From IMG/VR virus record IMGVR_UViG_3300037454_000603, positions 15,646 through 79,645 of that record: a stretch of 64,000 bases of DNA; one strand, 5' to 3'. This document shows positions 23,054-55,401 of the stretch, in pieces. The position numbers and the translations under genes were made by a program. Every line of letters begins with the position of its first letter. The stretch's first letter is position 1. The stretch is from a virus (lineage: Duplodnaviria; Heunggongvirae; Uroviricota; Caudoviricetes). The notes under the pieces are model-generated. The model was not told where the DNA came from, ran no database searches, and worked only from the letters and a program-made list of their open reading frames with translations.

Positions 23054-23142
23054 ATAAATTCCTCTTTTCTTATTTTCTATAATAATTATATCATAAAAAA
23101 TAAAAAAAGTCAAAGAATTTTTATTCTTTGACTTTCATTTTA

Positions 23143-26573: not shown

Positions 26574-26688
26574 ACGCAGTTTTTCTATCTCCTTTACATA
26601 CTAAACGAATAGAATTTGCTGCACTTCTTGTTTTTCCTATTGCTAAAGCAGCTTCCTCACAAGCTTCATATGTAGCTATAAAATTTCC

Positions 26689-27410
26689 CTATAAGTCATA
26701 TTGATTAACAGGCCTTGCTCCTGTTTTTCGATATGGCTTTGGAGCTGGTTCTCCATGTTTTACAAATAAATATTTTAACGCTCTGCCGCCAGTAGATAGA
26801 GCAGTACTTACCATACTTTCTGTCATATTTAACGCATGAGCAGCAGCACGACCGGACTCATAAGTATTCAAAAAATTACCTTTTAAGTCATAACAGTCAA
26901 TGCAAATTTTTCTTGAAGATTGCATAGCTTTTGTTGCTTTTTCTTTTTGCCTTTGCTTTGCTTCTTCTGACCACCCTTTGAAACCAGATAGAGCATAATA
27001 CACTGTATTACGTCTACATTCATATTCTTTGGCAATTTCATCAACACTAAAGCCTTTGTCCCACAGATTCTTAAATTCCTAATAGTTATACTTCTGCGCA
27101 CCTTCGCCACCAATTGTCGAGTTATACCCTTCTTGGTAAGAGTTATATTCTGCTATCCAATAACATTCTCTATCAGAAAGCGCAGAATTATCTTCTACGT
27201 ATTCAAGCTCTTTTGCTTGAAAATGATCAATACCATATTTTCTTATTGCTTTATAAAAATGTGTATCATGACGGGAATCTCCCTCAGAAGAAAAAGCTCT
27301 ACGTTTATGTTCATGCCATCTATGTTCTATTGTAGAAATTGTCTATCCAATATAAACCTTATCGTTTATATCATTAGTAATTATATAAATGTATCCCATT
27401 TATATCGCCT
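26689..27410 (-). CDS. GIY-YIG homing endonuclease (MGYIYIITNDINDKVYIG-TAG-T...HRWHEH) with a C-terminal NUMOD-like DNA-binding tail. Two in-frame TAG codons.
   Basis: Hand translation; ORF 26689-27003 is its C-terminus. Confidence 0.65.
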
Positions 27411-31427: not shown

Positions 31428-31519
31428 TAATTTTTCACCCTTTTCTTTTTTCTATAACAATTATATCACAAAAAATAAAAAAAGTCAAAGAATTTTCTTC
31501 TTTGACTTTTCTTTAACTA

Positions 31520-32411: not shown

Positions 32412-34110
32412 TTATTCCTTATTACCCTGAGCCGCGATACCATTAAAATTAAATATGTTATTACCACCGCACATCTGGCTCATAAGTATCATGGTAAGAA
32501 AATCATTATCATTACCGTCTTTACTCATAAATATAAAAGGAAGCATCTGATTCATGTTAGTATTGTTACCCATCATCTGAGACATCATAAGGAACTTAAT
32601 CATATCACCGTCGTTGCCCTTGGTTATATCGCTAAACATCATAAGAGGCATCATGTTTCCAAAAGGAGTATTCTCATTTGCAGTATTTGCAAAACTTTCA
32701 AAAGGATTAATAACCTTAGTCATATAATTAAATCCGAAAATATTGACCTGTGGAATTATAGTCTTAACGTCACCGCCAATAGGATTTACTACCTTCACAC
32801 CATCATCTACAAGTTCCTTAACAATTACATAATCACCCTTAAATCTTACAACGTCATTAGGCTGAATCTGATTCACAGCAACAGGCATTGCAAACATAGG
32901 TGCCTCAATGGTCATACCAGTTACATCAATTGCTCGATTGTCCTTGTAAACAAAAAACTTGCCACTCTTATCTGCAAAAGCAACACCATTTATAGAATAC
33001 TTAATCTTATTTGTAGTAAGCTTACCAAAATCTACATCATTAAATATATTATTGAAAATCTCACTCATATTACTTTTTTCCTCCTTGTTTTTAATTACCT
33101 CTATGTTTGAATGATTTTGAAAATTAATACAGCAATCAGAAAATGATGCCGTTGAACTTATTTGATCTAAATCACTAGAAGATATAAAAAGACCTTCTTT
33201 ATTTGTGTTATTAACAAGACCATTATGATTAATTAAAGGTTTTAATATATCTTCTTCATTTAAAATGAGCTTATTATTATTAAGATTAATTACTTCATTA
33301 ACATATCGCCTTTTTAATTCATGATAATCAATAGTAGTATATCTACCACAATTATCGAGAGAACTATAACTAAGTTTAGAATTATTATAATTTACAGAAA
33401 CTTCATTTTTTTCAACAAAATTTTTAATCCATTCTGTACCAAATTCATTTTCAAAAATCTGTGCTTTTATAATAATTTTCCATTCTTTCTTATCTATTAA
33501 ATAAGTAATATTATCTTCATCTACAGTTGTTTTACCTTCAATTCTTATATCAGTATCCTTATATGATGGAACATAATCATAAGTTTTCAAAAATCTATCT
33601 GTATTATTTCTTAGCTCTTTAATATGAATAATGTCTCCAATTTGTAATTTATCGTAGAGCTCTTTATCAAGAATTTCATAAGGATAAACTTTTGACTCTA
33701 AAGCAAAAACTCCTCTATTACTAGCAAAACGTACAAAGACTATATTATGCAACTTCTCTTCTCCTTTCTTTTGATTTAAATCAATTGGTAAAATTTCAAA
33801 ATATTCGGTTTCGGTCTAATAAGTTATCGTCCCATCTGTAGAAGCTTCTTTAAAAAACAAAAGTCTACCTAGCCTATTAGTTAATCGAATACAGACAAGT
33901 TTACCATTAATAACACCCGTATAACGAATTTCTCTCCATTCAGTTCCATTTTTATTGAAATCTTTAAGGCTCAACAAAGGAGTATCAGTAGAGAAAGTAA
34001 ATTCTGCCATACTTCCATAGCATGAGACTTCTAATTGTAAATTAAAAGCTTCTATTATCTAAGGCTCTTTTGTATCGTAAATAATTGTTATAGTCTCACT
34101 CATAATTTCC
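32412..34110 (-). CDS. Large hypothetical protein with a Met/Asn-rich C-terminus and in-frame TAG codons in its N-terminal third
   Basis: ORFs 32412-33752 and 33816-34010 are joined through TAG codons; boundaries approximate. Confidence 0.4.
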
Positions 34111-34693: not shown

Positions 34694-36157
34694 TCAAGCC
34701 CAAGTAAACTCGGGCTTAGTTAAAATTTCTTCCATTGCTTCAAAAGCACTTTTATTAATCAAAGTCTGCATGAATTTGAAAGTTCCAGTACTTTGACCAG
34801 AAACATAGCCAACATTTTCACTACATCTTGAAAGAGTATTGTTGCTTCTAGATTCAACATTCCAGTAGATAATCTTGCTCATAGGAACTCCAATATATTC
34901 AAACTTTTTCTTCCACTTTTCAGCTATTGATTCGCAATAATCCTGTCCTGCCCAACTATTAACTTCCATATCTGAAATTATTACAATTGCTTTGGGAGCA
35001 TCATGACTCATTCGAGCAACTTCATAAACCTTAGCAAAAACTGCATCAAGGTTAGTTGACCAACCCCAGTTAGCACTCATGACCTGTCTTACGCACTGAG
35101 TTAAAGACCAATTATCAGAAATCTTATGGAAAGAAGGACTAGAGGAAAAATTACAAAAAATATTATGATATTCTCCATGATTTCTCTGGGCAAAATAAAT
35201 TGCAAGACCAACAGCAGTAGAAATAGGTCGATAACCATCGTATTCCATGGAACCACTGGTATCAGCTACTACGAGTATATTATCACTTTCGCCCACATAG
35301 TTAGGAAGTGCCTTCCACTGTTCCTCAGCTATAGTGTCAAGCTCTCTAACACTCTTGGAGCAAAGAGGCTTGACAATATCATAAGGATAAAGAGTTGCCG
35401 CATTAACCTTGGCTTCTCCCTTTACAAGAGCATCCTTATACTTCTGGAATCTCTCAGGAACTCTCTTGTTAAAAGTAGAAATATATCTACTCATAGCTAC
35501 GGAAGGAACGCCCTCAAAGTTAATTTCATTCCACTGGCCAGCGCTCATCTTCTTTTCGACCACGTCTATATACTTTCTCATTGTGGAAAGAGTCTTACGA
35601 TAAGTTCTAGGAGTTACACTAAACTTTTTGCAAAACTTATTTGCCAACTTTCTGGTTTCGTCAGATGAAGTATTAATAGATGGCATCCATTTAGCAAGCA
35701 AAGTAATGGGTTTATTCTCTCTCATATTCTTCACATCAGTTCGAAATTGAGTCTCGACAAACTGCCACATTTCAGTTTCAACTGATGTTCCTTCAAAAAC
35801 AAAAAGGTCGTCCCATCTACCTGTATCAACAATCTTCTGGAAATTCTTCTTTATCTTCTCGGAATTAAATTTGGCAAGCTCTTTGAGAAGGAGTCGCCCA
35901 ATTCGTCTCTCTCCAAGACCACCATCTCTTACATTTCTAGCATAAAGGACGAGGTTATCCGCAAGTTCTTCATTTTCACGTCTCGCCGCCTTCCAAGTCT
36001 GAATTATATCTATATCTTCTCTATTCCTCATACCACCAATGTTAGCGAAAAGATCAAGCAAATCGCCGCCATCAGTGGTATTAAAACAACGTCCGCCATT
36101 CTCAGTATAAGTCTTAATTGCTTCATTCTTAAACATATCTGCAAAACTCATTTCCAT
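34694..36157 (-). CDS. rsr: Ro60/Rsr orthologue. N-terminal TROVE domain plus C-terminal vWA domain (MIDAS motif DTSGSM).
   Basis: Domain order and the MIDAS motif read by eye; an adjacent Y-RNA-like element lies at 36190-36292. Confidence 0.6.
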   Translation of the reverse strand: MEMSFADMFKNEAIKTYTENGGRCFNTTDGGDLLDLFANIGGMRNREDIDIIQTWKAARRENEELADNLVLYARNVRDGGLGERRIGRLLLKELAKFNSEKIKKNFQKIVDTGRWDDLFVFEGTSVETEMWQFVETQFRTDVKNMRENKPITLLAKWMPSINTSSDETRKLANKFCKKFSVTPRTYRKTLSTMRKYIDVVEKKMSAGQWNEINFEGVPSVAMSRYISTFNKRVPERFQKYKDALVKGEAKVNAATLYPYDIVKPLCSKSVRELDTIAEEQWKALPNYVGESDNILVVADTSGSMEYDGYRPISTAVGLAIYFAQRNHGEYHNIFCNFSSSPSFHKISDNWSLTQCVRQVMSANWGWSTNLDAVFAKVYEVARMSHDAPKAIVIISDMEVNSWAGQDYCESIAEKWKKKFEYIGVPMSKIIYWNVESRSNNTLSRCSENVGYVSGQSTGTFKFMQTLINKSAFEAMEEILTKPEFTWA

Positions 36158-36703: not shown

Positions 36704-36916
36704 TTACTTTTTGTGAAATCTAATTGAGTCTTTATATGAAGCTCTTCGACCACAACAGGGACATTTGCAATACACATCAAAAGGTAAGCAAGGCGGCGTA
36801 ATAGATACATCTCTATCTCCTCTATCCGCCTTCCATTCACATTCACAAACTGAACAATAAAAGAAAAATTCACCTATTCTACGATATTGAGATTTTCCTG
36901 CTTTAACTACTCTCAT
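36704..36916 (-). CDS. Zinc-ribbon protein
   Basis: Intact ORF; promoter module at 36940-36990. Confidence 0.45.
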   Translation of the reverse strand: MRVVKAGKSQYRRIGEFFFYCSVCECEWKADRGDRDVSITPPCLPFDVYCKCPCCGRRASYKDSIRFHKK

Positions 36917-37017
36917 ATTATTTTCTCTCTTTCTTTTTTTATTATAATTATTATAACAAAAAATTTTAAAAAAGTCAAATAAAAAGAAAGACTATATAAA
37001 CATAGTCTTCCTTATGC

Positions 37018-37105
37018 TGGCGCCGCAGGAAAGATTCGAACTTTCAGACTCTTACAAGCCGATGCTTTTCAAGAGCACGCCTCCTCCCCTCTAAGGTACT
37101 GCGGC
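37018..37105 (-). tRNA. tRNA-Ser (UGA), type II, CCA encoded
   Basis: Acceptor GCCGCAG/CTGCGGC; loop CTTGAAA; long variable arm. Confidence 0.7.
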
Positions 37106-37117
37106 AAATACAAGACA

Positions 37118-37230
37118 CTATTAATTAAACTCCGCTCTACCGACTGAGCTATTCTCCCATAAAATAGGAGAAGATGGATTCGAACCATCGACACGAGGCT
37201 TAAAAAGCAAATTAAGCGAGTTGCTGTAGT
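37118..37230 (-). tRNA. Permuted or fragmented type-II tRNA. A 3' half (anticodon-stem 3' strand AACTC, long variable hairpin GCTTAAtttgctttTTAAGC, T-arm GATGG-TTCGAAT-CCATC, acceptor TTCTCCT) sits upstream of its cognate 5' half (GGGAGAA, D-stem GCTC/GAGC, anticodon-stem 5' strand GAGTT). The flanks are 9-bp complementary (TAGTGTCTT/AAGACACTA).
   Basis: The halves complement each other but are in reverse genomic order. Confidence 0.4.
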
Positions 37231-37238: not shown

Positions 37239-37315
37239 TGGTTTCTCGGCTCCGAATTGAACGGAGGTTTCAAGCTTTTAGAGAGCTGAATGCTGACCAC
37301 TTACACTACCGAGAA
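37239..37315 (-). tRNA. Amber suppressor tRNA, anticodon CUA (loop CTCTAAA), U1-A72 Gln-like acceptor, CCA encoded
   Basis: Acceptor TTCTCGG/CCGAGAA; D-stem GTGT/GCAT; anticodon stem CAGCT/AGCTT; T-arm CTCCG-TTCAATT-CGGAG. Confidence 0.8.
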
Positions 37316-37321
37316 ATATTA

Positions 37322-37990
37322 TTAAATTTTATCCCATTCTTCATTGGAATAAGAATTAATGTCTTTTTTTCTTCTTGGAAGTCCATATTTATCACACCAT
37401 TTTCTTACTGCATTATCGGATACATTACAATTTTTTCCTATTTCACTAAAAGAAAATTGACGTATCCTTTGCTTAAGTTCTTCTCGTGTAAAAGGACATT
37501 TCCATTTCTTCTCTTTCTTTTCCTCTTTTTCTTCTTTTTTTCTTATGGGATAAGATTGATTCTTTTGCTTCCACATTTTCCCATTGTTTATCTAGGATAT
37601 TAAACAATGACTAACGTTATATTTCTTTGCAATTTCTTCCCCAGTAAGAGAAGCGTTTTTTAAATCATATACAATTTCATTTGCAATATTCCAGTTAATT
37701 TTGTACTACATATTTTCAATAGTACTCATATTATATCCATTCGGGGTCATTGTATTATATTTATTTATATAATATTTTTCTTTATCATTAAGTTCTGTCA
37801 AGGCGCATTCTTCTATTACCTCGAAAGAGAAGTTCTCTTTTCCATACTCTCGCATTGCCTAATATAATAAAGTATTCTTTGTATTCATTTTATTCTAATG
37901 TTCTCTCCATCTTCTTCTAATATCATTGGACTATCCAATATAAGACATTCCATTAGATTTATTAGTAACTTTATAAATTCCTATCATTTA
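37322..37990 (-). CDS. GIY-YIG homing endonuclease (MIGIYKVTNKSNGMSYIG-TAG-SNDIRRRWREH-TAG) with the shared C-terminal HTH tail. Four in-frame TAG codons.
   Basis: Hand translation; ORF 37322-37576 is its C-terminus. Confidence 0.7.
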
Positions 37991-38024
37991 AATCACCCTT
38001 AAAATAAATTAGAGAGTATTATAA

Positions 38025-38096
38025 CGCCCTTGGAAGTAATCGAAACCTCATCTTGGGTTCCGTAGACCCACGTCCTATCCATTGAACGACAAGGGC
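38025..38096 (-). tRNA. tRNA-Arg (ACG)
   Basis: Acceptor GCCCTTG/CAAGGGC; anticodon stem TGGGT/ACCCA; loop CTACGGA. Confidence 0.7.
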
Positions 38097-38103
38097 AAAT
38101 TAG

Positions 38104-38176
38104 TCTGAGAACAAGGACTCGAACCTTGACCTGCAGGGCCACAACCTACAATGCTTACCGTTACACCACTCCCAGC
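38104..38176 (-). tRNA. tRNA-His (GUG) with an extra G at -1
   Basis: Anticodon stem GTAGG/CCTGC; loop TTGTGGC; D-stem GTGT/GCAT. Confidence 0.6.
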
Positions 38177-38187
38177 ATATAATTAAT

Positions 38188-38250
38188 ACAGGTGAAGAGA
38201 TTCGAACTCTTACTGTCTGCGTTCTTAGCGCAGTTTCTCTACCAGTTGGA
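38188..38250 (-). tRNA. tRNA with anticodon AAG (Leu-decoding), type-I short variable arm
   Basis: Anticodon stem CTGCG/CGCAG; loop CTAAGAA; T-arm AAGAG-TTCGAAT-CTCTT. Confidence 0.5.
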
Positions 38251-38280
38251 ATACACCTGCATATGCCCCGAAGGGCAATT

Positions 38281-38793
38281 TTATTTAGATAGCATATTTG
38301 CTACACCAGAAGCCGCATAGCTATCTGGCTTAATTCTAGCTTCAAAACCTGAAGCCTCAATCCAACCACAAATTTCTTTTATAAGTTCCTTAGTCTTGCC
38401 GCGGCGACCAATGTCAGCATGAACAGCAAAAGACAAACGATTTTCATCAAACATTATATCAAGATCAATGTTATCTTCAAGTAGTTCTTCTTGAAGAGCA
38501 TCAATGAAACCCATTGCATTCACAATTGAACGGTTAGTTTCTTCGATAATCTTTTCCTTTAGGACTTTTATCTTAGGAATATCTTCTCTGCGGAAGAAAA
38601 AAATACCACCGTCACCAATACGGCAAACAGCTATAACTTCAACCATACGAGTCATTTTGTGATTTTGAGAGTCAGTACCAACAGTTATATCATAACTTTC
38701 TGAAGGATTAACTCTAATGTAATCTGCAATTACCTTAATCATTTCGCTGTAAGAAACTTCCTGACCATTACCACGCTTAAATATCTTTTCCAT
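38281..38793 (-). CDS. Hypothetical protein, possibly RNase H-like fold (ITVGTDSQ)
   Basis: Intact ORF; weak motif only. Confidence 0.3.
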   Translation of the reverse strand: MEKIFKRGNGQEVSYSEMIKVIADYIRVNPSESYDITVGTDSQNHKMTRMVEVIAVCRIGDGGIFFFRREDIPKIKVLKEKIIEETNRSIVNAMGFIDALQEELLEDNIDLDIMFDENRLSFAVHADIGRRGKTKELIKEICGWIEASGFEARIKPDSYAASGVANMLSK

Positions 38794-38889
38794 TTTTGTT
38801 CTACTCCTTTATTTTTTAAATAAAGCAAGACAGTTTAGGTATTGTTTTTAAAAGAAACAGCCATAAAGAGTTGCTGAAACTGTCTTTAA

Positions 38890-39008
38890 TCGAGATGACA
38901 GGACTTGAACCTGCAGCTTCTTGCTCCTGGCGCCAATGGCTGGAGTTGCACCAGCTAATACTCTTCACTGACCAAAGCAAGCCGTCTACCAAATTGACTT
39001 ACATCTCG
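38890..39008 (-). tRNA. Aberrant ~119-nt tRNA-like gene. Acceptor (CGAGATG/CATCTCG) and T-arm are good, but there is a ~45-nt extra segment between the D-arm and T-arm. Anticodon unresolved.
   Basis: CTTGC...GCAAG brackets a 50-nt insert. Confidence 0.4.
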
Positions 39009-39018
39009 TTATATGGAC

Positions 39019-39780
39019 TTAAATTAAAGCCCATTCTTCATCTGTATAGTTATTTATATCTGTCTTTCTTCTAGGTAGTTTTTCAAAATCACACCATTTG
39101 CGAATAGTATTATCAGAAACATTATATATTTTTCCTATTTGAGTAAAAGGTTTTGTACGAATTAATTGTTTTAACTCTTCCCTTGAAGGTCGCTCAACTG
39201 TTCTAAAAAATAACTAATTACATTTTACACATCTAGTAGATTTATAATCTATTTCTGCTCCACAATCTATACAATATTTTTGTTCTCTTTTATCTCCATG
39301 TCTTTTTTTAGATATTGCTTGAATGGGATATTCTCTATCATGTTTCCAATATCGTCCAGTATTAATACCTTGTATCATTTCTACAGATATATTCCACTTT
39401 TCTGCTATTTCTCTATGAAACATATCTGTCTTTTCTAAATCATTTATTATACCAATAATTTTTTCCTTATTAATTTCATTTCCAGAGCTATCTCCGCCAA
39501 TAGTCAAATTATATCCCTCAAAAAATGAATTATACTATTTAATATAGCTTTTTTCTTTTTCATTCAACTCAGAAACTAAACATTCTTCAAGAACTTCAAA
39601 AGTAAAATTTTCAAAACCGTATTTTCTTATTGCTCTGTATAAAGGTTTATCATAATTATGATCATTAGGATTAAATGCAGTTGATTTATGACCTCTCCAT
39701 CTTTTCTTTATATCTTTGCTCTATCCAATATAAACTTTTCCGTTAATCTAGTTTGTAATCTTATAAATTCCTATCATATT
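39019..39780 (-). CDS. GIY-YIG homing endonuclease (MIGIYKITN-TAG-INGKVYIG-TAG-SKDIKKRWRGH) with a zinc ribbon and the shared HTH tail. In-frame TAG codons.
   Basis: Hand translation; ORF 39214-39507 is an internal piece. Confidence 0.65.
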
Positions 39781-39890
39781 TACCACTCTCCATACATCAT
39801 TAACCACTCATTTAATATAAAATTAAGGGAAGAGTGAGTGGTTACTCTTATCAATAGGTTTGCAATTCCTATCTATCCCCTAATATCAAT

Positions 39891-39963
39891 ACCTGTGGGT
39901 GGATTCGAACCTCCAAACAGCGAATTTTAAGTTCGCTCGCTTTGCCAATTAGCGTACACAGGC
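39891..39963 (-). tRNA. tRNA with anticodon UAA (Leu-decoding), short variable arm
   Basis: D-stem CGCT/AGCG; anticodon stem GCGAA/TTCGC; loop CTTAAAA. Confidence 0.55.
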
Positions 39964-40031
39964 ATATTGCTAATATAATTATTAGCAACATCATTGAAAA
40001 GAAAGGTCAAAAATGGCAGTATTTGACCTAA

Positions 40032-40104
40032 TGACCGTACGCGGGCTTGAACCGCGAATCTTCGCCTTGAAGGGGCGACGTGTTAGCCAGTTCCACTATA
40101 CGGC
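40032..40104 (-). tRNA. tRNA-Glu (UUC), second copy, loop CCTTCAA
   Basis: Acceptor GGCCGTA/TACGGTC; anticodon stem TCGCC/GGCGA. Confidence 0.65.
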
Positions 40105-40260
40105 CTTACATACAAGACAGCTTGAAACTCCAGAGGAGTGTGAAGGGTTTGAACCTTCTAAAAATTTTTTTACAGAAAAACTTTATTAACCAGAAAATGA
40201 GTTGCTGAAACTGTCTTTTTTAATTTTCTAAATAAATTATAACAAAATTTTTAAGAAAAA

Positions 40261-41040
40261 TCAAATTTTTTTCCAATCTTCTTCAGTATAATGCTCTATA
40301 TCTGCTTTTCTATAAGGAAGATTTTCATTTTTACACCATTTGCGAATTGCATTATCTGTAACTCCAAACATTTCTCCAATTTTAGTAAAAGGCAAAGTTT
40401 TAATTAATTGTTTTAACTCTTCTCGATTAGGTCGATTTACTTTACGATTTTTTAATCTATTACATTTATCACATCTAGTAGAACCAAACAATATTTTAGT
40501 ACCACAATCAATACAATACGTATCTGGATTTTTAATTTTCTTAAAATATTCTTCTTTTTCTCTTAATGGATACTGTAAAATATCTTTCACCCAACTCTTA
40601 CCAGTATTAATATTAGATATTAAAGACTAATCGACTTGATACTTCTGTGCTAAATCATTCTATGAAATTTCAGTATAAAGTAAAGCCTTGATTATTTCAT
40701 CGACCTATACCTCATTTAATTTCAAAGGATGTGGAGTATTGCCTCCGTCATCCTAATTATAACCATAGTCATTATCATTGGAATGATAATAACTAATCCA
40801 ATATTTTTCTCTATCATTCAATTCTTCAATAAAACAACTTTCAATTATCTCAAATCGAAAATTCTCTATTCCATATTTTCTTATTGCCCTATATAGTGGA
40901 TAATTATAGCCCTTATTGTTTGGATTATGGGCAGCACATTTATGATTTTGCCATCGTTTTTTAATATTTCTACTCTACCCAATATAAATTTTTCCATTAA
41001 TTAAATTAGTAATTTTATAAATTCCTATTTCTACATTCAT
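40261..41040 (-). CDS. GIY-YIG homing endonuclease (MNVEIGIYKITNLINGKIYIG-TAG-S) with a zinc ribbon and the HTH tail. In-frame TAG codons.
   Basis: ORF 40261-40590 is its C-terminus; terminator hairpin at 41090-41112. Confidence 0.65.
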
Positions 41041-41147
41041 ATAATCGTCTCCTACAAATTATTTCCTACAACAATATAATATACAAAAGGAAGAGGGTAG
41101 GAGCCTCTTATCATAGAGTGATCAAATTCTACTATCCTTTTGTATTT

Positions 41148-41216
41148 ATGTCACAAGATAGAATCGAACTATCTTAAAATGCTTATGAAGCATTTTTCTT
41201 ATCCATAAGTTGTGAC
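41148..41216 (-). tRNA. tRNA with anticodon CAU (Met, or lysidine-modified Ile) and a reduced D-loop
   Basis: Acceptor GTCACAA/TTGTGAC; anticodon stem AATGC/GCATT; loop TTCATAA; T-arm GATAG-TTCGATT-CTATC. Confidence 0.55.
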
Positions 41217-41380
41217 ATACCGCCTTATTTCATACTACGGAGACGGTGCCGCGAAATATTTACTTTTCAAATATTTAAAGTCAATCAGTTTAGCCTTCGC
41301 TGATAGCCAAGCTTAGACCGCTTTCTTTTGCGACGCCCTAGCTACTCGTCGTTTGATTCGTGCACAATCAAGAACCGCAT

Positions 41381-41650
41381 TTTTAACTTCTAAGATAAGG
41401 ACTCCTGCCGCGGCACCGTCCGACTTATGTTTTTAACTTTGAGGATAAGGACTAGCACGTAGCTTATTGTCCGACCTTTAATCTAGAACTTTTTAACTTT
41501 AAGGGATAAGGGCTCTTCTAGTTCGCCCGACCTCTTCTAATTAAGTGCGCTTTTAACTTACGATAAGGTGCGCTATCCGACGGAAACCTTTTGTTAACTT
41601 TTATAGAGGATAAGGGACTAACTCGGCTCTAGATCTTCTGTCCCGACCTA
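41381..41650 (+). repeat. Tandem array of five ~50-60-bp diverged repeats. Each is TTTTAACTT, a few nt, RGGATAAGG, then a hairpin with a co-varying stem (GGAC/GTCC, GGGC/GCCC, GGGAC/GTCCC) and a variable loop, then GACC.
   Basis: Seen in the sequence; compensatory stem changes point to a structural RNA or DNA element. Confidence 0.55.
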
Positions 41651-41666
41651 TTACAATAGGAGGTGA

Positions 41667-41774
41667 TACTCTTATGAAAAAGAGTTTTCAAGATACTTTT
41701 ACTTTTTTAAATTTTAAAATCTTTTCAAAAAATCTACTTATTTTAATATCTAAAATTGCTGTAAGTATCTTTTA
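41667..41774 (+). CDS. Plus-strand 35-aa hydrophobic peptide MKKSFQDTFTFLNFKIFSKNLLILISKIAVSIF. Has a strong RBS (AGGAGGTGA). Resembles type-I toxin or holin-like small membrane peptides.
   Basis: ORF directly downstream of the repeat array on the same strand. Confidence 0.4.
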
Positions 41775-41775
41775 G

Positions 41776-41857
41776 TGGGAGAGGAAGGACTCGAACCTTC
41801 GAAGACCGAAGCCACGTGGTCTACAGCCACGCGCAATTGCCGCTATGCGACTCTCCC
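41776..41857 (-). tRNA. tRNA-Tyr (GUA), type II
   Basis: Acceptor GGGAGAG/CTCTCCC; anticodon stem CGTGG/CCACG; loop CTGTAGA. Confidence 0.7.
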
Positions 41858-42141
41858 ATTATTTTATATATATTCTAACCAAGAATATAAATGTTATAAC
41901 CCCACTCCTAGGTTTTATTTTATACGCTCCTATCCCCAGAATAGGTGGCATACAATACCTAAGTCCAAAAGTACCATAGAATTACATCGCGCCGCGACCA
42001 CTATGATATTTCTACTTGTTATAACTTCCCAAGTTTATCTTTAATTAAACCCCTTTCTTTTTAAGGACAAGACACTATTTAAATACAATCAGTTCCCAAA
42101 ACAGATGTTATTTAATAGCTGTAAGTGTCTTTGATGAATGG

Positions 42142-42216
42142 TTTCAGCGGAAGGATTTGAACCTTCGGTGTCCTGTTTTAGAGACAGGTGCGTTAAACCC
42201 ACTTCGCCACGCTGAA
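42142..42216 (-). tRNA. Second amber suppressor tRNA, anticodon CUA (loop CTCTAAA), U1-A72. Its sequence differs from copy 1.
   Basis: Acceptor TTCAGCG/CGCTGAA; anticodon stem CCTGT/ACAGG; T-arm GAAGG-TTCAAAT-CCTTC. Confidence 0.8.
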
Positions 42217-42364
42217 ATATAATCAAGATAAAATATTTAAGTCATTTTCATTTTCTATATTAATTATAGCAAAAATTTTCTTAAAAATCAAATTTTTAAC
42301 TTTTAACTTTTATAGAAAAGAGGTAAGTGTTTTAAGTGTTATCGCTTCACTATGAATAAATTGG

Positions 42365-42686: not shown

Positions 42687-42777
42687 TGCTCCCTCCGAGA
42701 CTCGAACTCGGACACCTTTCGATACCTGTTCTTGAGACAGGCGCGTCTGCCATTTCGCCAAGGGAGCATTTGATTGG
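42687..42777 (-). tRNA. tRNA-Leu (CAA), type II
   Basis: Acceptor GCTCCCT/AGGGAGC; loop CTCAAGA; long variable arm. Confidence 0.7.
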
Positions 42778-42782
42778 GCGAC

Positions 42783-42866
42783 TGAGATTCGAACTCAGGA
42801 CAGGTTTCCCATGCGCGGGTCAAAGCCGCGTGTGTTCAGCCACTTCACCACCGCCCAGTTTTTTTG
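42783..42866 (-). tRNA. Type-II tRNA with anticodon UUG and U1-A72 (a Gln anticodon on a long-variable-arm body)
   Basis: Anticodon stem CGCGG/CCGCG; loop CTTTGAC; 15-nt variable arm. Confidence 0.5.
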
Positions 42867-45807: not shown

Positions 45808-46500
45808 TCAGTGTGCGCTTGTATCAAATTCATCTACATATTTCCAATAATATCCTTTATATAACTATCCGTCATTAAAATGATGTTTTAGAATTGTACC
45901 TTTTAATCCTAAAGAAGAGGCCGCTTGTCTATTTGAAGAAAAAGTATTTATTAAATTCCAATCTTTATCATATTGTAATACTGTTTTACCTTTTCCTCCG
46001 CTAGTATGCGGTTCAATTCTATTTACAGGTCTATTATCATCTGAAAATCTCCACTAATAATTTCCTGCACTGTAACATCCGCCTCTTGCTGCTCTCTAAA
46101 TATTAGCATTTTCAATACCTGTTTTTGCCGAAGCTTCTCCACAAGATTTAAATTCTGCAACAAAATTTCCCTCTAAATTATACTATTTTATAGGTCTAGC
46201 ATTAAAAGAAGTACCATTTCCTTCTCCTTTTCCTTCCGTCATGTTATATCCATTTTTATAACTATCATAATATGATATCCAATATGCTTCTCTTAATATT
46301 AAATCTTCTTCTGGGCACTCTTCAATAACTTCAATATTAAAATTATCAATGCCATATTTACGCATAGCAAAATATAGATGAGTATTCTTATTCTAATAAG
46401 AAGATTTATGTTCTTTCCAACGGTGTTCTATATTATATCTAGTCATTCCGATATAAAGTTTGTTATTTATTATATTTGATATCTTATAAATATATCCCAT
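45808..46500 (-). CDS. GIY-YIG homing endonuclease (MGYIYKISNIINNKLYIG...HRWKEH) with C-terminal NUMOD-like repeats. Five in-frame TAG codons. Ends with TGA.
   Basis: Hand translation; ORF 46183-46365 is an internal piece. Confidence 0.65.
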
Positions 46501-47441: not shown

Positions 47442-48141
47442 AATTTTCCCTCCTTTATATATTAATTATATCATAAAAAATTAAAAAAGTCAACTAAAAA
47501 GTTGACCTTTAAAATATTAATTATTCCATTTCCCAATATATGCCTATATAATTATCGAATTCCTTAGTTTTATCATTATAGACCTTCAAGACCTCATTGT
47601 TTATAATACGAAAACTATAAGGAGTACATCGCAATTTTTTAGTCATTTTTTTAAACCATTCATCATAATCATAAAAGGAAGGAAAAACAGTATAATTCTT
47701 ATTCAATGACGATCCACCTTTCAATAGATGTATAAATATCTTTATCACATAGAACATAGGTTTCTGCCCATTCCGCTTGACTTAGAAGACAACCAAGCAT
47801 AGATTTAGCATTTACCTTGAATTGAGTACTTCCGTCAATAAGATAAACATCTGCATCTATCTTATCTATAATATTACAAAAATCTTTTACATCTGTAAGA
47901 GTATCAAGTCTAATCTTATTCTTCATTTTACATTACCTCACTTTTTTTTAAATAAATCTAAAAATATATCAAACCCCGCAATATTAAGTAGAAAAATAAT
48001 AAAAGCCAATATAATAATTTTCATACTTTTATCTCCTTTCTATAAAAATTATAACAAAAATTTTTATAAAAATCAATAATTCGCCGCGCTTCCATTTTTT
48101 ACCAATAAAAGTAAAATTCTGGTAGCGCGGCGCATAGTAAT

Positions 48142-48390
48142 TTAAAGAACCTCTTCAAAACCAAAAACACAATATCCTTCTTTTAATCCATATCCATTTA
48201 AAACATAATTAATTTGATAAAGTTTTTCATTAATTGGATATGTAACAGGAGTTAAATCTTCATAACAAACAAAACTAATATAGTCACCTTTTTGATATCC
48301 TCTGTCATTTTCTCGAACTTCAAATCTTTTACTACCTTCCATGATTGCTGCCGCAAAAGGTCGTTGAATTTTTATTGTATGTGTCATTTT
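48142..48390 (-). CDS. ASCH/DUF3850-like small protein (MTHTIKIQRPFAAAIMEGSKRFEVRENDRGYQKGD)
   Basis: Start assumed at the internal ATG within ORF 48142-48621. Confidence 0.45.
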   Translation of the reverse strand, partial: KMTHTIKIQRPFAAAIMEGSKRFEVRENDRGYQKGDYISFVCYEDLTPVTYPINEKLYQINYVLNGYGLKEGYCVFGFEEVL

Positions 48391-48703
48391 ATCCCACCCT
48401 TTGATTATATCCATATTCATCACTATGGTAGTATTTTGTCCAATATTTTTCTTTTTCTGTCTATTCTTCTTTTGGACAAACCTCAACAATTTCCCAAGTA
48501 AAATTTTCAAGTCCTTCGTTCCACATAGCATCATAAAGCTATCCTTTAATTCTTTCAATATTGCATCCACGTTTAGCATGTGTACGCCAACGAGATAGAA
48601 AAGAAGCAGATGTTTTTCCAATATAAACTTTTTGATTCTTAATATTGGTTATTTTATAAATACCACCGTTATCTTTGTCTCCACTTAAAACTCTTTTAAA
48701 CAT
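48366..48703 (-). CDS. Short GIY-YIG nuclease (GGIYKITNIKNQKVYIGKTS...RWRTHAKRGC). Two in-frame TAG codons. Apparently in frame with the upstream TAG-rich coiled-coil ORF.
   Basis: Hand translation; TAA stop overlapping the ASCH-like gene. Confidence 0.5.
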
Positions 48704-49447
48704 TTCTTCTATTCTAGTTTTATAATAAACATCATATATAAGCTTATAAATAACTTCCTATTTAGAAAAAGTTAAAGCTAAAGTTTTAAGTTTCTCAATA
48801 TCTGCCTTCTCTATATCATTAATCTAAACTCGATAAAAATCGGCTTGCTATTTTCTTTCTTCATCAAGCTTAAAGCGAGCAATTATCTCTTTCTATTTAC
48901 TCTCATATTCCTGAATCTCTTTATTTAGAGTTTCCCTTTGTTTGGATATTTGCTCGCTAAATATGAAAAAATCTTTATCAAGCTCCTCTTTTTTATCTTT
49001 ATAATTAGCCTTTAAATTTTCTAGTTCAGTCTAAAATTTTTTAGTTTCTTCTGAAATTTGCATAGTCTACTCTTGACTTCTACGCTGTGCCGCCGCCCTG
49101 TCCATTTCTTCCACCTATTGACGGCGGCGTAAATAATCTTGAGTTAATTCTTCAGTTTTTTGCTAAAAATTCTATTTTTCTTTGTTATAATTTCGGTTAA
49201 GTTGCTCAAGAGAACGACGAAGTTCTTCCTGTTTAATAAGATGTTCTTGGGTTAATTCCTTATCAAAAATATCTTTCTTTTCTTTTAGACCATTAAGAAC
49301 TTTACTTTGAGATTTTTTAAATTCCTTCTTTTCAACATCTCTTCCTCGTGCAACTAGACAAATATACATTGCCGCGGCACCAAGAAGAAAGCAAAGTATT
49401 ACAAGTAAAATTGTTACTACCATTCGGTTATTCCTCCTTCTTTTCAC
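48704..49447 (-). CDS. TM-anchored coiled-coil protein (MVVTILLVILCFLLGAAAMYI...) with at least eight in-frame TAG codons
   Basis: ORF 49172-49447 continues through TAG codons; the boundary with the downstream GIY-YIG gene is unresolved. Confidence 0.35.
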
Positions 49448-50210
49448 TTACAACCTTATGGTCTCTTGCCTTTCCCTCTTCTATATATCTTAAAAGAGTT
49501 TCTAAACTAATTTCTCTATGACAAGAATAACGCTCAGGACAATAATGAAGTCTTTTACACTTGGGTACAAATATTTCTAATTCTTTTACAAGATATTCCC
49601 ATTCATCAGAATAAATGCAAAGAGCATCTAAAATTTCATTACACAAATCTCTAATTTCCCAATAAGCCCTTTGACATAATCTTTGTTCCATTATGTTTAT
49701 AAGTTCTCTAAGTCCTACTCTAAACATCATTTTAGTTGAATAACTTAAAGGCAAAATTTCACTAGCATCTTCTTTAGCAATACCCATTTCCTTTAATGCT
49801 TTCATTGTTTCATTTGCATTTACCATAAAAAAATCATAAAGATCTTTTGCTTCACTATTTTTTTCTATATCCTTTGGAGTGATATAATCAAAATTATCAT
49901 AATTGATATAACGAGTTGAGGCCTGAAGACGAGTGACATCAATTATATGTGTATAAAGTTCTCTAATACACTTTGCAGACCAACCATCAAGTACCATGTA
50001 AATTTGAGGAAATTCAAGTGTTCTCCAATGCCCACTTTTAAAACAATCAACTCCTCGTTCAAAATTTTTCTTATTATTTTTAATATCAGCTCCCCAACAA
50101 ACTCCTGCTGCAAACCCTGCAAAAGTAAGAGGTTCGTCTGTTGTTTCACTTAGGATAATAACTCTACCCTTCTGGTCAAATCGTCTGCTCAGCATAATTT
50201 TCCTCCTCAT
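49428..50210 (-). CDS. ThyX-like (flavin-dependent thymidylate synthase family) protein. The canonical RHR motif is replaced by YTH.
   Basis: RLCQRAYWEIRDLCNEIL matches the ThyX helix RLCHRAQWEIRELAEAM; upstream segment ELYTHIIDVTRLQASTRY. Confidence 0.5.
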   Translation of the reverse strand: MRRKIMLSRRFDQKGRVIILSETTDEPLTFAGFAAGVCWGADIKNNKKNFERGVDCFKSGHWRTLEFPQIYMVLDGWSAKCIRELYTHIIDVTRLQASTRYINYDNFDYITPKDIEKNSEAKDLYDFFMVNANETMKALKEMGIAKEDASEILPLSYSTKMMFRVGLRELINIMEQRLCQRAYWEIRDLCNEILDALCIYSDEWEYLVKELEIFVPKCKRLHYCPERYSCHREISLETLLRYIEEGKARDHKVVSEKKEE

Positions 50211-50795
50211 TATTCATAGATTCAAATAATTCTAAATCTTCAATTCTTCGACTTATATAATTAAGTTCAAGCGGATAGTAGTCTAAAGCTTTGAAGCTAA
50301 TGTTTAAAATTTTATCTTGTATTTTTTCTTTAAAGCCAATTATTGATGTTGGGGCGGCAAATAGTTTCCCTTCTGTTGAATAGCGATAAACATAATCATC
50401 TCCTGCAAGATAAAGAACATCTACTTTATTACCATTATAATTAGTTTGATAACTCCAACCATCAGTTCTCCAATTTTTAAAACAATTCCAAGGTTTTTCT
50501 TTATATTTATTATCTCTACTTAAAATTATAATTTCACCGTCAATTTGTTTTAAAAGTTCAATTGTTTCATCATCGTTCTTTTCGTTGATTATACCACAAA
50601 GAATTATACTATCTTCTTTTTTAACAAACTCGTTAATTCTCTAAATCACAAACTTATTATATTCTCTAGGAGTTTTTCTCAATTGTCGTGCCGCATCTCG
50701 ACTAAATAGATTTAAATCTCCAACAATCCAACATTTACTCATTCTATCCCTCCTTTATAATATAATTATATCATTTTTAAAGAAAAAAGTCAAGA

Positions 50796-52457
50796 TTAAA
50801 TCTTGACTTCTGTTTTTTCTTTAAGTATCTGTCTCACATATTCCATTGTAAGACTACCACAAATCTTTCCAAAGCCTTCTATAGCTTGAACAGTATCAGG
50901 CTCTTCTTTAAGGCAATCTTCATAAACAAGACGATTAATATTCTTTGCAATAGTTCCCATGTGAGTCTCGTTCCAATCCCAAGGAATTATTTGATCTTCA
51001 GCAAGTTTTTCCAGAATTTTCTCAATACGACGACGAGTTACTACTGTTGCGGCATAGTTACGTAAAGCTTCCTTTTTCTTAAGCTCTTCTGGGTCGACAG
51101 GTTTCTTATGGTCTTTATGAACTTCACTAAACTTCTCAGAAACAAGCTTTAAATATATTGGACGTCTACTATCATTATCTTTAAGACGCTCCTGTGATTT
51201 TACTACTACACCTTCGCCGCAAGGCTGGGCATTAAGATTTGTTTGCCCAATAAAAGAATAAACATGGTCCCAACCTCTAAATGGACCAGTATAAAATATA
51301 GGTGCCATATAGATAGTTTCCATAACCTTCATTGTTGACTTAGCAAGACCATTAAAAATAGCAAGCACATCTTCAAAAGGTAACCAACTTTCTTCTACAG
51401 TATCCCATATATCAAAAAGATAAAATTTTTTATAAAAAACTTCATCATATGAAATTGTATGTTTACAATTATGCACAATAAAATTATTAGCGATAAAATT
51501 GGCTATATTTTCGTTGCCACTCATACAAATATCATAACAATCTTCTTCACCGACATCCTCGATAGAAATAATATAGTCAAACTCATAATCAAATTTAGGC
51601 TGATTCTTAAATTTAGTATGACTATTTCCGTGACAATCTTGACAAAGTACTTGCCAATTATCTTCAGTATTATGAAAAGGATTCTCATCTTTATGATGAA
51701 GATTTAGTCCATTTGTGGCTCCGCATATCTCACATTTTCCAATTCTATCCTTGTATTCTTTCTGTTTTCTAAATATCTCTCTCGTACCAATTCCATAAGT
51801 TCTTTGATGAGTATTCCTTGTAATAAAATCTGTAATAGCAACACAATCATACTCAGAAAGTTTTCCTAATTCTACCCACCCCTTAGGAGTTAAAAAAGGA
51901 TGATTAGCAGTAGCTTTAATTGAATAACCTTTATGAGTTGTCAGCTTATAAACCTTTTTCTTTCCAGTATAAACAATTTCTTGTATTTTATTGGGCTGAA
52001 TTATATCAGTTTCCAAATCAAGAGAATAAATACTTGGATAGCCATTCCTCTCCCACCAGCTCTTAGTTCTTCCCTCTTCTGGAGTATGAGCATATTCATA
52101 CATTTCTTTCAGCGTCATTTCTTTTTTTCCTTTTCCTGCGCTGACTTTTTTAATAACTGTATCTCCAGAAAGACAAAGCCATTCGCCAAACAAAATATAA
52201 CGACCGTAATTAGTTGCAATAGCTACGGCCTGTTTAGGTAAACGTTGAGTCCACTCCCAAAAACCATTAAGAGTATTCATTTCATTTAACGGTCGGCGAC
52301 GAGAGAAAGCAACAACGCTATCTGTTTCGGAATCATAGGAAAATGCACTTGAGGATCCGTCAACCTTCTCACTTATTGTAATCTCTTCTCCTATTTTAAA
52401 ACAATTGATATATTTTTCTTTTAAACGTTCTATATCTATATACTTTTTTTGTTTCAT
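50796..52457 (-). CDS. Rnl2-like RNA ligase (motif I EKVDGSS; FGEW; FDIWD; EGVVVK). Interrupted by an intein (residues ~95-330) that carries an HNH domain.
   Basis: Intein boundaries FGEWL/CLSGDTV and FIVHN/CKHT; HNH CEICG...HHKDENPFHN...LCQDCH. Confidence 0.65.
   Translation of the reverse strand: MKQKKYIDIERLKEKYINCFKIGEEITISEKVDGSSSAFSYDSETDSVVAFSRRRPLNEMNTLNGFWEWTQRLPKQAVAIATNYGRYILFGEWLCLSGDTVIKKVSAGKGKKEMTLKEMYEYAHTPEEGRTKSWWERNGYPSIYSLDLETDIIQPNKIQEIVYTGKKKVYKLTTHKGYSIKATANHPFLTPKGWVELGKLSEYDCVAITDFITRNTHQRTYGIGTREIFRKQKEYKDRIGKCEICGATNGLNLHHKDENPFHNTEDNWQVLCQDCHGNSHTKFKNQPKFDYEFDYIISIEDVGEEDCYDICMSGNENIANFIANNFIVHNCKHTISYDEVFYKKFYLFDIWDTVEESWLPFEDVLAIFNGLAKSTMKVMETIYMAPIFYTGPFRGWDHVYSFIGQTNLNAQPCGEGVVVKSQERLKDNDSRRPIYLKLVSEKFSEVHKDHKKPVDPEELKKKEALRNYAATVVTRRRIEKILEKLAEDQIIPWDWNETHMGTIAKNINRLVYEDCLKEEPDTVQAIEGFGKICGSLTMEYVRQILKEKTEVKI
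51468..52175 (-). other. Intein (Hint domain plus HNH homing endonuclease) inside the Rnl2-like ligase
   Basis: Block A CLSGDT at the N-terminus, block G VHN-C at the C-terminus. Confidence 0.6.
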
Positions 52458-52459
52458 TT

Positions 52460-53390
52460 TAATCTATCCTCCAAATATTTTAAATTTATTTTATTCTTAT
52501 CTGTATATGGAATTATTATTAAAGGAATATTATGTTCTTTACAATACTGCTATTTTTTTAAATCATTTTCCTTTAAATTTTTAAAACTTTCCTCTCCTCC
52601 AAAAAAATCTATTGGTTCATAATGTTGCTATCCATTAAATTCAATTAAATACTTTAATATATTATCTTTAAACAAAGCAAAATCAAATCTTAATACCTTT
52701 TCTTTTCCTTTTAAATCCTAAAAAGAATATTCTCTTTCTACTCTATAATTCATTGTAGATAGTATACTAGCAATAATTGTTTCACCCTATGATTTTATAC
52801 AACCACAAGACTATGTCTAATTAGATATTAAATTATAACTATTTACTGTGACATAATTCCCGCAATCACATTTACATAACCAATAAGCGTGGGTATTATT
52901 ATTTTTTCTATTTTTCATTGCTTCCTCATCAATTTTTAAAGCAATCAATTTTCCAAATCTTTGATTGGTCAAATCTTTTCGTTTTTCTTTTAATTTATCT
53001 AAATTTAAGCATCCACAAGATTGAGTATCTCCAGCTTTTAAATTGAGAGTCTTAGCTATAATTTCTTTTCCGCAATCACAGCGACATAGCCATGCAGTTC
53101 TTAACATACCAGAAGGCTCTCTTATAGATTCAACTTGCTTAAGAACGGTTAATCTACCAAAACGTTGTCCTTCAAGCTAATTACCAACTGCTTCTCTAAC
53201 TCTTTCATTTCTTAGACAGCCGCACGATAAAACTTTTCCCTATCTTAAATCATTTCCATAAACGTTTTTAATTGTACCACATTCGCACTAACAAGTCCAT
53301 TTAATCCTTTTAGTAGTACGAGGATTTTCTTCATGTAATACAGTTAATCTTCCAAATACTTGTCCTGTTAAATCAATCTTATTACCCATT
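52460..53390 (-). CDS. Nuclease-like protein. Three tandem zinc-ribbon repeats (FGRLTVL...WxCxCDCG...SCGC) plus a C-terminal PD-(D/E)XK/DUF559-like domain (LRFDFAL...IEFNG-TAG-QHY). At least six in-frame TAG codons.
   Basis: ORF 52817-53107 is a central piece; hand translation of both flanks. Confidence 0.45.
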
Positions 53391-55086: not shown

Positions 55087-55401
55087 CTATTCTGTCTTTT
55101 CATCTAAATTTGGAAAAAGACAAAGATAATGTAAAACTTCATTAAAACAATCATAAGGCTCTTGAAGCATTAAAGCATGACCTGATTTAATTACGGGAAT
55201 ATTGCCTATTAACTTATTGCCCTCTTCGTTTATAAAGCCATATCTTTCTTTTAAAATAGGAATAATAACACTTAAAGCAATTTTAAATTCCCTATCATTA
55301 AGTTCTATAAATTTAGGCTGAGTTGCTTTTAGAAATTGATGAAATAAATAATCAATTTCAACAGTCATATTGTCATCTTTATAAAGCAAATAATTTTTCA
55401 T
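55087..55401 (-). CDS. Hypothetical protein
   Basis: Intact ORF. Confidence 0.45.
   Translation of the reverse strand: MKNYLLYKDDNMTVEIDYLFHQFLKATQPKFIELNDREFKIALSVIIPILKERYGFINEEGNKLIGNIPVIKSGHALMLQEPYDCFNEVLHYLCLFPNLDEKTE

Follow-up and report, generated by a model that had tools for sequence, protein, structure and literature searches.

Two CUA-anticodon tRNAs and TAG codons that evolve like glutamine codons in an uncharacterised metagenomic phage lineage

Results

Two CUA tRNAs in a phage tRNA cluster

We analysed a 64,000-nt stretch (positions 15,646 to 79,645, hereafter the window) of the metagenomic phage record IMGVR_UViG_3300037454_000603 (Caudoviricetes). About half of the genes in this phage read the stop codon TAG as glutamine (Gln), and its tRNA cluster contains two genes with the anticodon CUA, here called Sup1 (37239–37315, minus strand) and Sup2 (42139–42216, minus strand). 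Between them lie three GIY-YIG homing endonuclease genes, all on the minus strand and all with in-frame TAG codons: 37322–37987 (five TAGs, at sites such as YIG-TAG-S and REH-TAG-N), 39019–39777 (four TAGs) and 40261–41040 (five TAGs). The phage genome is ~179 kb in size; the window is AT-rich (GC ~32%) with a steadily negative GC skew, and its minus strand carries nearly all of the genes.

An exact-protein look-up showed the identical genome in independent Logan and JGI assemblies, the Logan contig being L001. Relatives were found only as metagenome contigs of 168–183 kb. Two of them, L002 and L003, carry orthologues of a late-looking protein of 1027 amino acids (aa), and the tRNA clusters of four others (L005–L008) were fetched by anchoring on a TAG-free RNaseH-like gene inside the cluster. 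Judging from record names only, the habitat of the relatives would be the ruminant or animal gut, and the window phage itself would come from a gut- or rumen-type metagenome. No relative was recovered from IMG/VR by a UvrD-based scan or by a scan with the Sup1 sequence, and GenBank phages gave neither a DNA match to 20 kb of the window (megablast) nor a homologue of the 1027-aa protein (tblastn). This lineage of ~170–180 kb is new to annotated collections.

ARAGORN detected 26 tRNA genes in the window, all on the minus strand, two of which had the anticodon CUA. The Rfam tRNA model added two genes that ARAGORN had missed; the cluster comprises 26–28 genes. Against this model, Sup1 scored 47.4 bits and Sup2 66.3 bits (gathering threshold 29); Sup1 had been missed by Rfam only through the fast filter of the whole-window scan. 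The two predictors agreed on the anticodon CUA within the loop CTCTAAA, which a first reading of the sequence made without database searches (the sequence-only reading) had assigned to both loci. Both tRNAs have the loop CUCUAAA, the acceptor pairs U1-A72, U2-A71 and C3-G70, the discriminator A73 and an encoded CCA, and thus also the U1-A72 end that had been pointed out as typical of tRNA-Gln. Sup1 has one C-U mismatch at the top of the anticodon stem and begins 6 nt past the stop of the GIY-YIG gene 37322–37987. The two tRNAs share 68% identity, and within the window each is the best match of the other, though barely above background. They may fairly be called distinct, as had been proposed, but to call them unrelated was too strong, given this identity and their common ends and loop.

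The gene order of the cluster is kept in L005, which has CUA tRNAs at both syntenic sites, 11141–11212 for Sup1 and 6734–6824 for Sup2; the latter sits between tRNA-Ser(GCU) and tRNA-Tyr. Two CUA tRNAs were found in L008 and one in L007, and none was found within the 20 kb of L006. Sup1 and Sup2 are structurally sound and are conserved in synteny in one relative (L005).

TAG as a sense codon

When TAG was treated as a sense codon, the total length of minus-strand open reading frames (ORFs) of at least 100 aa rose from 10,416 aa under the standard code to 15,919 aa (+53%), whereas the TGA-sense control reached 11,710 aa (+12%). Re-calling genes in this way restored long ORFs, as the sequence-only reading had predicted. 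In a crude call, 33 ORFs of at least 70 aa contained an in-frame TAG, 142 TAGs in all, and a curated set of 86 genes held 136 TAGs. The earlier count of at least 25 genes was thus fair, with the reservation that a few of the 33 ORFs are doubtful because their TAGs lie within N-terminal extensions (e.g. 25443–26756 and 36704–37003). The first of these is an Rnl1-type RNA ligase ORF (minus strand) in which the four TAGs are confined to the first 52 codons, a part that precedes the ligase domain and overlaps with the GIY-YIG gene 26527–27399. These TAGs are probably not coding, with the true start near 26570.

Stops in the 86-gene set are TAA (67) or TGA (19) by construction. No excess of TAG was found near the ends of the curated genes, and there is therefore no sign that TAG still terminates genes. 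Single ORFs of 1027 aa and 695 aa hold 28 and 12 in-frame TAGs, respectively, and the automatic gene caller used for the Logan assembly had called both products whole; the public caller had therefore picked a TAG-sense code. The base following TAG differed slightly from that following CAA/CAG (chi-square p = 0.03), but the effect was small and did not amount to a convincing bias. In the early regions of L006 and L007, the ORF gain from TAG-sense translation was about equal to that from TGA-sense translation.

We considered whether the TAGs could be artefacts or mark pseudogenes, with the CUA tRNAs giving low-level read-through only. The 1027-aa ORF is open across its 28 TAGs and has counterparts with 80% and 52% identity in independent assemblies, where TAGs also occur (its orthologues hold 20 in L002 and 9 in L003). 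Moreover, Logan and JGI data yielded the same genome in independent assemblies, and the 136 TAGs in curated genes show a Gln-like substitution pattern. This explanation is effectively refuted.

The amino acid encoded by TAG

The GIY-YIG gene 18265–19065 (minus strand), in which 12 TAGs make up 67% of the Gln-type codons, was used as a test case, and homologues were searched with TAG masked as X. Across 120 full-length metagenomic homologues, Gln accounted for 28% of the residues in the TAG columns against a background of 4.5%, and two conserved TAG columns had Gln in 113/120 and 97/120 homologues; these counts are possibly partly circular, as the metagenomic database may itself translate TAG as Gln. 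The test was therefore repeated with cultured standard-code phages and with orthologues at the codon level.

In the cultured phages (of Enterococcus, Bacillus, Staphylococcus and Vibrio), the column following the YIG motif was Gln in five of six cases. TAG occupies this column in 6/8 of the GIY-YIG paralogues of the window. The sequence-only reading had placed TAG at a Gln or Ser site in every GIY-YIG protein; this held for these six, but the residue is Met in the gene starting at 45808 and Lys in that starting at 48389.

The codon-level comparison covered 65 orthologous gene pairs, each made up of a window gene and its counterpart on one of six related contigs. Among 280 codons opposite TAG, 58 were TAG and 61 were CAA/CAG, the latter being 8.3 times the background. 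The other codons followed the usual substitution spectrum of Gln (E, K, S, N, R and H). Enrichment was limited to Gln: Ser was at 1.2, Lys at 1.0, Leu at 0.4 and Tyr at 0.3 times the background, and Trp never occurred. The same Gln-like pattern was seen in the orthologues of the 1027-aa protein by themselves. As the alignment of TAG positions had been expected to reveal, homologues carry Gln and orthologues carry CAA/CAG codons at these sites. Judged by its substitution pattern, TAG is shown to be a sense codon evolving like a Gln codon.

The features of the tRNAs point in the same direction. A weak U1-A72 pair is a trait of bacterial tRNA-Gln that is read by GlnRS and GatCAB. Across five loci, U1 was present in 7/7 CUA tRNAs and 9/9 tRNA-Gln, against ~18% of other tRNAs. 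The start formed by U1-A72, U2-A71 and C3-G70 (TTC...) occurs in only one other tRNA of the window, the phage's own tRNA-Gln(CUG) (19194–19265, minus strand), which also has A73. When five CUA tRNAs and two tRNA-Gln(CUG) were folded to a consensus, the result was a cloverleaf with compensatory changes in 16/20 pairs, in which U1-A72 and C3-G70 were invariant, and the CUA tRNAs of the relatives aligned with the tRNA-Gln(UUG) family of the lineage. Charging of Sup1 and Sup2 with Gln thus appears well supported, if indirectly.

ARAGORN labelled both tRNAs as tRNA-Pyl (pyrrolysine) from the anticodon alone. tRNA-Pyl has a 6-bp anticodon stem, a 3-nt variable loop and a very small D-loop, and accompanies pylS and pylBCD genes. 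The cloverleaves of Sup1 and Sup2 are ordinary, with 5-bp anticodon stems, D-loops of 8–10 nt and variable loops of 4–5 nt, and no pyl genes were present among the annotated ORFs of the window. The label was rejected on the tRNA architecture and on the alignment of TAG to Gln.

A broader alternative is that TAG is decoded as another amino acid or ambiguously, the two CUA tRNAs being charged differently (e.g. with Gln and with Ser, Leu, Tyr, Lys or Pyl). Apart from the ARAGORN label, this could be argued from the 68% identity of Sup1 and Sup2, from their non-Gln neighbours by whole sequence, and from the long extra arms of CUA tRNAs in relatives, a trait of Ser, Leu and Tyr tRNAs. However, only Gln is enriched opposite TAG, conserved TAG columns are Gln in homologues, and the top three acceptor pairs and A73 are common to both tRNAs and tRNA-Gln(CUG). 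The stem and loop dimensions are unlike those of tRNA-Pyl, and the tRNA-Gln(UUG) to which the long-armed CUA tRNAs align is itself long-armed and belongs to the same lineage. We consider non-Gln or mixed decoding improbable.

TAG-rich and TAG-free genes

Overall, TAG makes up 27% of the Gln-type codons in the 86 genes, but its spread is very uneven (heterogeneity among genes, G = 204.8, matched in 0/5000 permutations). Fifteen genes lack TAG entirely despite having at least five CAA/CAG codons (P = 5e-17). In-frame TAGs reached 18.6 per 1000 codons in TAG-bearing genes, against 22.4 off-frame, whereas the remaining genes had no in-frame TAG in 7,932 codons against 19.1 per 1000 off-frame. The genes thus form a TAG-permissive and a TAG-excluding class.

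The TAG-rich class comprises the eight GIY-YIG genes, a further homing endonuclease gene, a small HNH-like gene, two large paralogues and the genes round the lysis cassette; those with coordinates given here are all on the minus strand. Besides the four GIY-YIG genes described above, a GIY-YIG homing endonuclease beside the Rnl1-type ligase (26527–27399) has three TAGs (YIG-TAG-T), a protein with GIY-YIG and helix-turn-helix domains (3388–4197) has six TAGs and no CAA/CAG, a GIY-YIG gene at 45808–46500 has five, and a coiled-coil GIY-YIG protein (48389–49423) has 11. The homing endonuclease at 52454–53389 (PHROG 374/559/9084) has nine, including EFNG-TAG-QHY. That recoding extends to homing endonuclease genes, as first proposed, is borne out by these nine genes.

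The large paralogues are the 1027-aa protein (58698–61781), in which 28 TAGs represent 56% of the Gln-type codons, and the late-looking 695-aa protein (56590–58677), with 12 TAGs. Neither had a Pfam or PHROG match. Distant homologues of the 1027-aa protein are fused to GH25 muramidase domains, and the label "late/virion" for both proteins would follow from these homologues and from their position by the lysis genes. In the late/lysis neighbourhood, a 112-aa gene (62107–62445) has four TAGs, and a 130-aa gene (63088–63480) directly downstream of the GH25 endolysin has three. The endolysin itself, which extends past the window end and was read on L001, has three TAGs, and an 80-aa gene overlapping its start has TAG at five of its six Gln codons.

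The TAG-free class includes the UvrD-type helicase (55401–56504, minus strand; 0 TAGs among 12 Gln codons), ThyX, NT5C, both RNA ligases, the RNaseH-like and SPFH proteins, a Ro60/TROVE-like protein with DUF2828 and DUF7788 (34694–36157, minus strand; 0 among 13) and most small genes. The sequence-only reading had also suggested that recoding spreads into replication genes, but those genes of replication and nucleotide metabolism that can be recognised in the window (UvrD, ThyX, NT5C and both RNA ligases) are all TAG-free. One of the ligases (50796–52457, minus strand; 0 among 16 Gln codons) contains an intein with an HNH endonuclease, which is TAG-free, unlike the free-standing endonucleases. 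Being embedded in the ligase, the intein endonuclease would be translated along with its early host gene. The ligase orthologues in L002 (317 aa) and L003 (314 aa) have no intein.

Promoters and the predicted host

A consensus scan for sigma-A-type promoters with an extended -10 element gave near-consensus sites that are almost all intergenic and on the coding strand. One such promoter-like site, a pattern match only (TTGATT, 17-nt spacer, TG-TATAAT; 42263–42291, minus strand), is located ~45 nt upstream of Sup2. Behind sigma-A-type promoters, small genes are mostly free of TAG and belong to the class with zero TAGs, in agreement with what had been noticed at first. A terminator-promoter unit recurs on the minus strand at 31460–31513, 23085–23136, 47465–47510, 50765–50811 and 56539–56581. 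It consists of a long AT-rich hairpin with the -35 box TTGACT in its 3' arm, followed by a T-run and TG-TATAAT, and corresponds to the "conserved promoter" of the sequence-only reading.

The sigma-A-type promoters, together with dockerin and CHAP proteins in relatives, suggest a Firmicutes (Clostridia-type) host for the lineage. It is conceivable that the host itself reads TAG as Gln, with the phage tRNAs acting as mere supplements and without any code switch. This is very unlikely: half of the coding sequence strictly avoids TAG, which is hard to square with an ordinary Gln codon, and the promoters and a dockerin protein in a relative indicate ordinary Clostridia-type hosts.

Other RNA features in the tRNA cluster

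A non-coding block (41217–41774, minus strand) lies between tRNA-Tyr and a tRNA-Met-like gene, and its conserved five-module part spans ~430 nt. It has 83% identity to L005:7184–7774, with long stretches near 100%, whereas a late protein of the same two phages has 52% identity. Each of the five tandem modules consists of a hairpin closed by GGAC/GTCC with a variable interior, followed by CCTTATC(C), 2–9 nt and AAGTTAA(AAA). All five copies of the motif in the window are in this block (0.08 expected), and four copies occur in L005 and two in L006. The block had no Rfam match even at E < 10, and in a two-sequence consensus fold it was too conserved to give a covariation signal. It is a candidate for a new structured RNA. 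The adjacent AT-rich tRNA (41149–41216, minus strand) was detected by Rfam only (32.3 bits); its anticodon is CAU by eye, and it is syntenic with tRNA-Met(CAT) in L005.

Long extra arms are normally limited to Leu, Ser and Tyr tRNAs. The tRNA-Gln(UUG) of the window (42774–42857, minus strand) combines the acceptor pairs U1-A72, G2-C71 and G3-C70 of canonical bacterial tRNA-Gln with a long extra arm of ~15 nt. This arm is kept in L005 (5976–6061) and L006 (6401–6485), where its sequence differs but the hairpin still forms. Among the CUA suppressor tRNAs, one of L005 (91 nt) and one of L007 (86 nt) also have long arms. A quick look through the literature turned up no description. In the more distant relative L008 (1–20516), there are 41 tRNA genes, including its two CUA tRNAs and one call with a two-base "anticodon", and a gene resembling transfer-messenger RNA.

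tRNA-Pro(UGG) (38890–39008, minus strand; Rfam 49.3 bits), which ARAGORN recovered only in intron mode, has a 45-nt intron directly after the anticodon. Its length falls short of what a self-splicing group I intron requires. For recoded jumbo phages, introns in tRNA genes are on record (PMC13037316).

Directly downstream of Sup1, a match to the YrlA Y RNA-like family (37101–37215, minus strand) covers the full length of the model with both tRNA-like arms; its score is below threshold (34.8 bits, gathering 69; local E = 4e-6). It lies ~1 kb from the DUF2828 and DUF7788 gene 34694–36157, and the two probably form a phage Ro/Y-RNA module. A further motif, AAGACA(G/C)T..CAGC(A/T)A, occurs four times on the minus strand (38870–38886, 40201–40217, 41755–41771 and 42115–42131; 0.02 expected), in the tRNA cluster only. 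Each copy serves as the 5' arm of a long hairpin whose end reads ...TGTCTT. One copy directly follows Sup2, and a variant begins the YrlA-like RNA after Sup1. These hairpins may be processing sites, terminators or further Y-like RNAs.

Discussion

We interpret the window as part of a phage that uses genetic code 15 (TAG = Gln) with two CUA tRNAs of its own, in which the uneven distribution of TAG would act as a timer of late gene expression. We assign this reading as a whole a probability of roughly 0.88. Its core, a phage TAG-to-Gln reassignment served by CUA suppressor tRNAs, had been put forward from the letters alone and came through the tRNA, ORF and alignment analyses.

A plausible course of events is as follows. 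Host RNA polymerase would transcribe the tRNA cluster from sigma-A-type promoters, and the host Gln-charging system, either GlnRS or a non-discriminating GluRS with GatCAB, would load the CUA tRNAs with Gln. Host charging is inferred because both tRNAs keep the acceptor-stem features of the phage tRNA-Gln(CUG) as well as U35. As the CUA tRNAs accumulate, they would out-compete host release factor 1 (RF1) at UAG. TAG-free genes whose products are needed at once (most small early genes, UvrD, ThyX, NT5C, the RNA ligases and the Ro60-like protein) could be read by a naive host, and free-standing homing endonucleases, large virion-type proteins and lysis genes would be completed only after suppression had been set up. 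Recoding would then be a translational timer of the kind put forward for other recoded phages.

The recoding may be real while the split in TAG use has no regulatory role. TAG could have arisen from CAG by C-to-T drift where selection is weak, namely in selfish homing endonucleases and fast-evolving virion proteins, with constrained or highly expressed genes keeping CAA/CAG, or TAG-bearing genes could have been imported from recoded phages. Several observations fit drift. TAG is found at less conserved sites (TAG or a Gln codon stands opposite 42% of TAGs, against 62% for CAA/CAG), and in TAG-bearing genes the in-frame density is close to the off-frame density, as neutrality predicts. TAG-rich genes have hardly any CAG (3 CAG, 28 TAG and 19 CAA in the 1027-aa gene), which fits a replacement of CAG by TAG, and Sup2 has a host-type promoter of its own. 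However, the total lack of TAG in 7,932 codons, which include many small and poorly conserved genes, argues for active exclusion and not just slower drift. Furthermore, the bias towards late and lysis genes arises independently in unrelated recoded clades, and the HNH endonuclease of the intein in an early gene is TAG-free whereas the free-standing endonucleases are not. Neutral drift is a plausible cause of the TAG bias, though we hold it to be distinctly less likely than a regulatory one; the recoding itself is unaffected either way.

Six points weigh against the reading of a code-15 phage with a TAG-based timer. First, by whole sequence (121 tRNAs), the nearest neighbours of Sup1 and Sup2 were not tRNA-Gln; the top matches were His, Asp, Ser and Val tRNAs at 0.75–0.79. 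This classification was uninformative, and we therefore relied on acceptor-stem features. Second, the identity elements of E. coli GlnRS are G73, G2-C71 and G3-C70, and these are absent from Sup1 and Sup2. They are also absent from the phage tRNA-Gln(CUG), and because that tRNA has the identical set of A73, U2-A71 and C3-G70, the E. coli rule may not apply to the host. Third, the 64-kb window of the ~179-kb genome contains no RF2, anti-RF1 factor or aminoacyl-tRNA synthetase. Fourth, with its own sigma-A-type promoter, Sup2 may be made from the outset, which would leave accumulation time as the sole delay. Fifth, genes with early-type promoters at 32412–34103 and 50176–50742 hold one or two TAGs, so that the timing split is not absolute. 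Sixth, the TAG bias could be neutral, through relaxed constraint or a horizontal origin of the homing endonuclease genes.

The load of homing endonucleases is very high: the 64 kb hold eight GIY-YIG, one PHROG-374-type and one small HNH-like endonuclease as well as the intein HNH, and tRNA genes alternate with three of the GIY-YIG genes. The suppressor tRNAs and the TAG-laden GIY-YIG genes lying between them might, on the model of T4 SegB, constitute a mutually dependent mobile module. The endonucleases would be "code-locked", translatable only where the CUA tRNAs are active, and would drive preferential inheritance of the suppressor cluster in mixed infections. If so, the module would spread a code-change device through the phage population. 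We regard this idea as unlikely. In a weaker variant, Sup1 and Sup2 might be specialised by timing, by charging enzymes or by resistance to tRNA-targeting nucleases. The TAG-rich endonucleases in the tRNA cluster offer a test bed for whether selfish elements adapt to a changed code or spread it.

For annotation, this genome and its relatives need translation table 15, without which roughly one third of the coding capacity is missed or broken up. The phage presents a clean two-class case, with TAG-excluding and TAG-indifferent genes, which is the pattern expected if recoding times late gene expression. Current understanding is unchanged by these findings; an uncharacterised lineage of ~170–180 kb joins the known TAG-to-Gln phages.

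Comparison with known systems

A CUA suppressor tRNA is common but not universal in code-15 phages (reported in ~40–60% of genomes), and crAss-like and Lak phages, in which this code is well known, infect Bacteroidota. The novelty implied by the sequence-only reading, which had stressed Firmicutes-type promoters, homing endonucleases and two suppressors, did not stand, every element having already been published. Metaproteomics has confirmed code 15 in crAss-like phages (PMC9523058), and for rumen jumbo phages a 2026 survey put the share with code 15 or a related code at 8.75% (PMC13037316). With crAss-like and Lak phages, the window phage shares the reassignment, a suppressor tRNA and the late-gene bias. 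It differs from them in its sigma-A-type extended -10 promoters and in the dockerin and CHAP proteins of its relatives, and the megablast and tblastn searches of GenBank phages brought up no relationship.

Borges et al. (bioRxiv 10.1101/2021.08.26.457843) described TAG- and TGA-recoded phage clades with suppressor tRNAs, several of them predicted to infect Firmicutes, in which structural and lysis genes are recoded and replication genes variably so. Like the Agate-, Sapphire- and Jade-type phages, the window phage has a low GC content, a genome well above 100 kb and its own CUA tRNA, and it has recoded structural and lysis genes across modules with early and DNA-metabolism genes in the standard code. 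Placement in the Jade, Sapphire or Agate clade needs a terminase; the window holds neither a terminase nor a major capsid hallmark gene. In Agate phages, a group I intron endonuclease is preferentially recoded (TGA) (bioRxiv 10.1101/2021.08.26.457843). The window phage also has recoded homing endonucleases, and these TAG-laden, free-standing genes (eight GIY-YIG and two others) are denser than anything described in the text of that paper.

Another known system is phAss-1 (Babkin et al., PMC10607447), which has three Sup-CTA tRNAs and a predicted Clostridia host. Both phages show TAG-to-Gln reassignment, more than one Sup-CTA tRNA (three there, two here) and no dedicated synthetase (here, in the 64-kb window), and both have a predicted Clostridia-type host and come from gut metagenomes. 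The window phage differs from phAss-1 and the proposed Phassvirus in genome size (~179 kb against 136 kb) and has no detectable DNA similarity to it; neither 20 kb of the window (megablast) nor the 1027-aa protein (tblastn) had a match among GenBank phages, from which we conclude that the lineage is a different one.

Finally, T4 SegB is a GIY-YIG homing endonuclease encoded in a phage tRNA cluster; in mixed infections, it causes the tRNA region to be inherited preferentially (PMC2330249). The interleaving of GIY-YIG and tRNA genes in the window resembles this arrangement. Unlike segB, the endonuclease genes described here would depend on the neighbouring suppressor tRNAs for their own translation.

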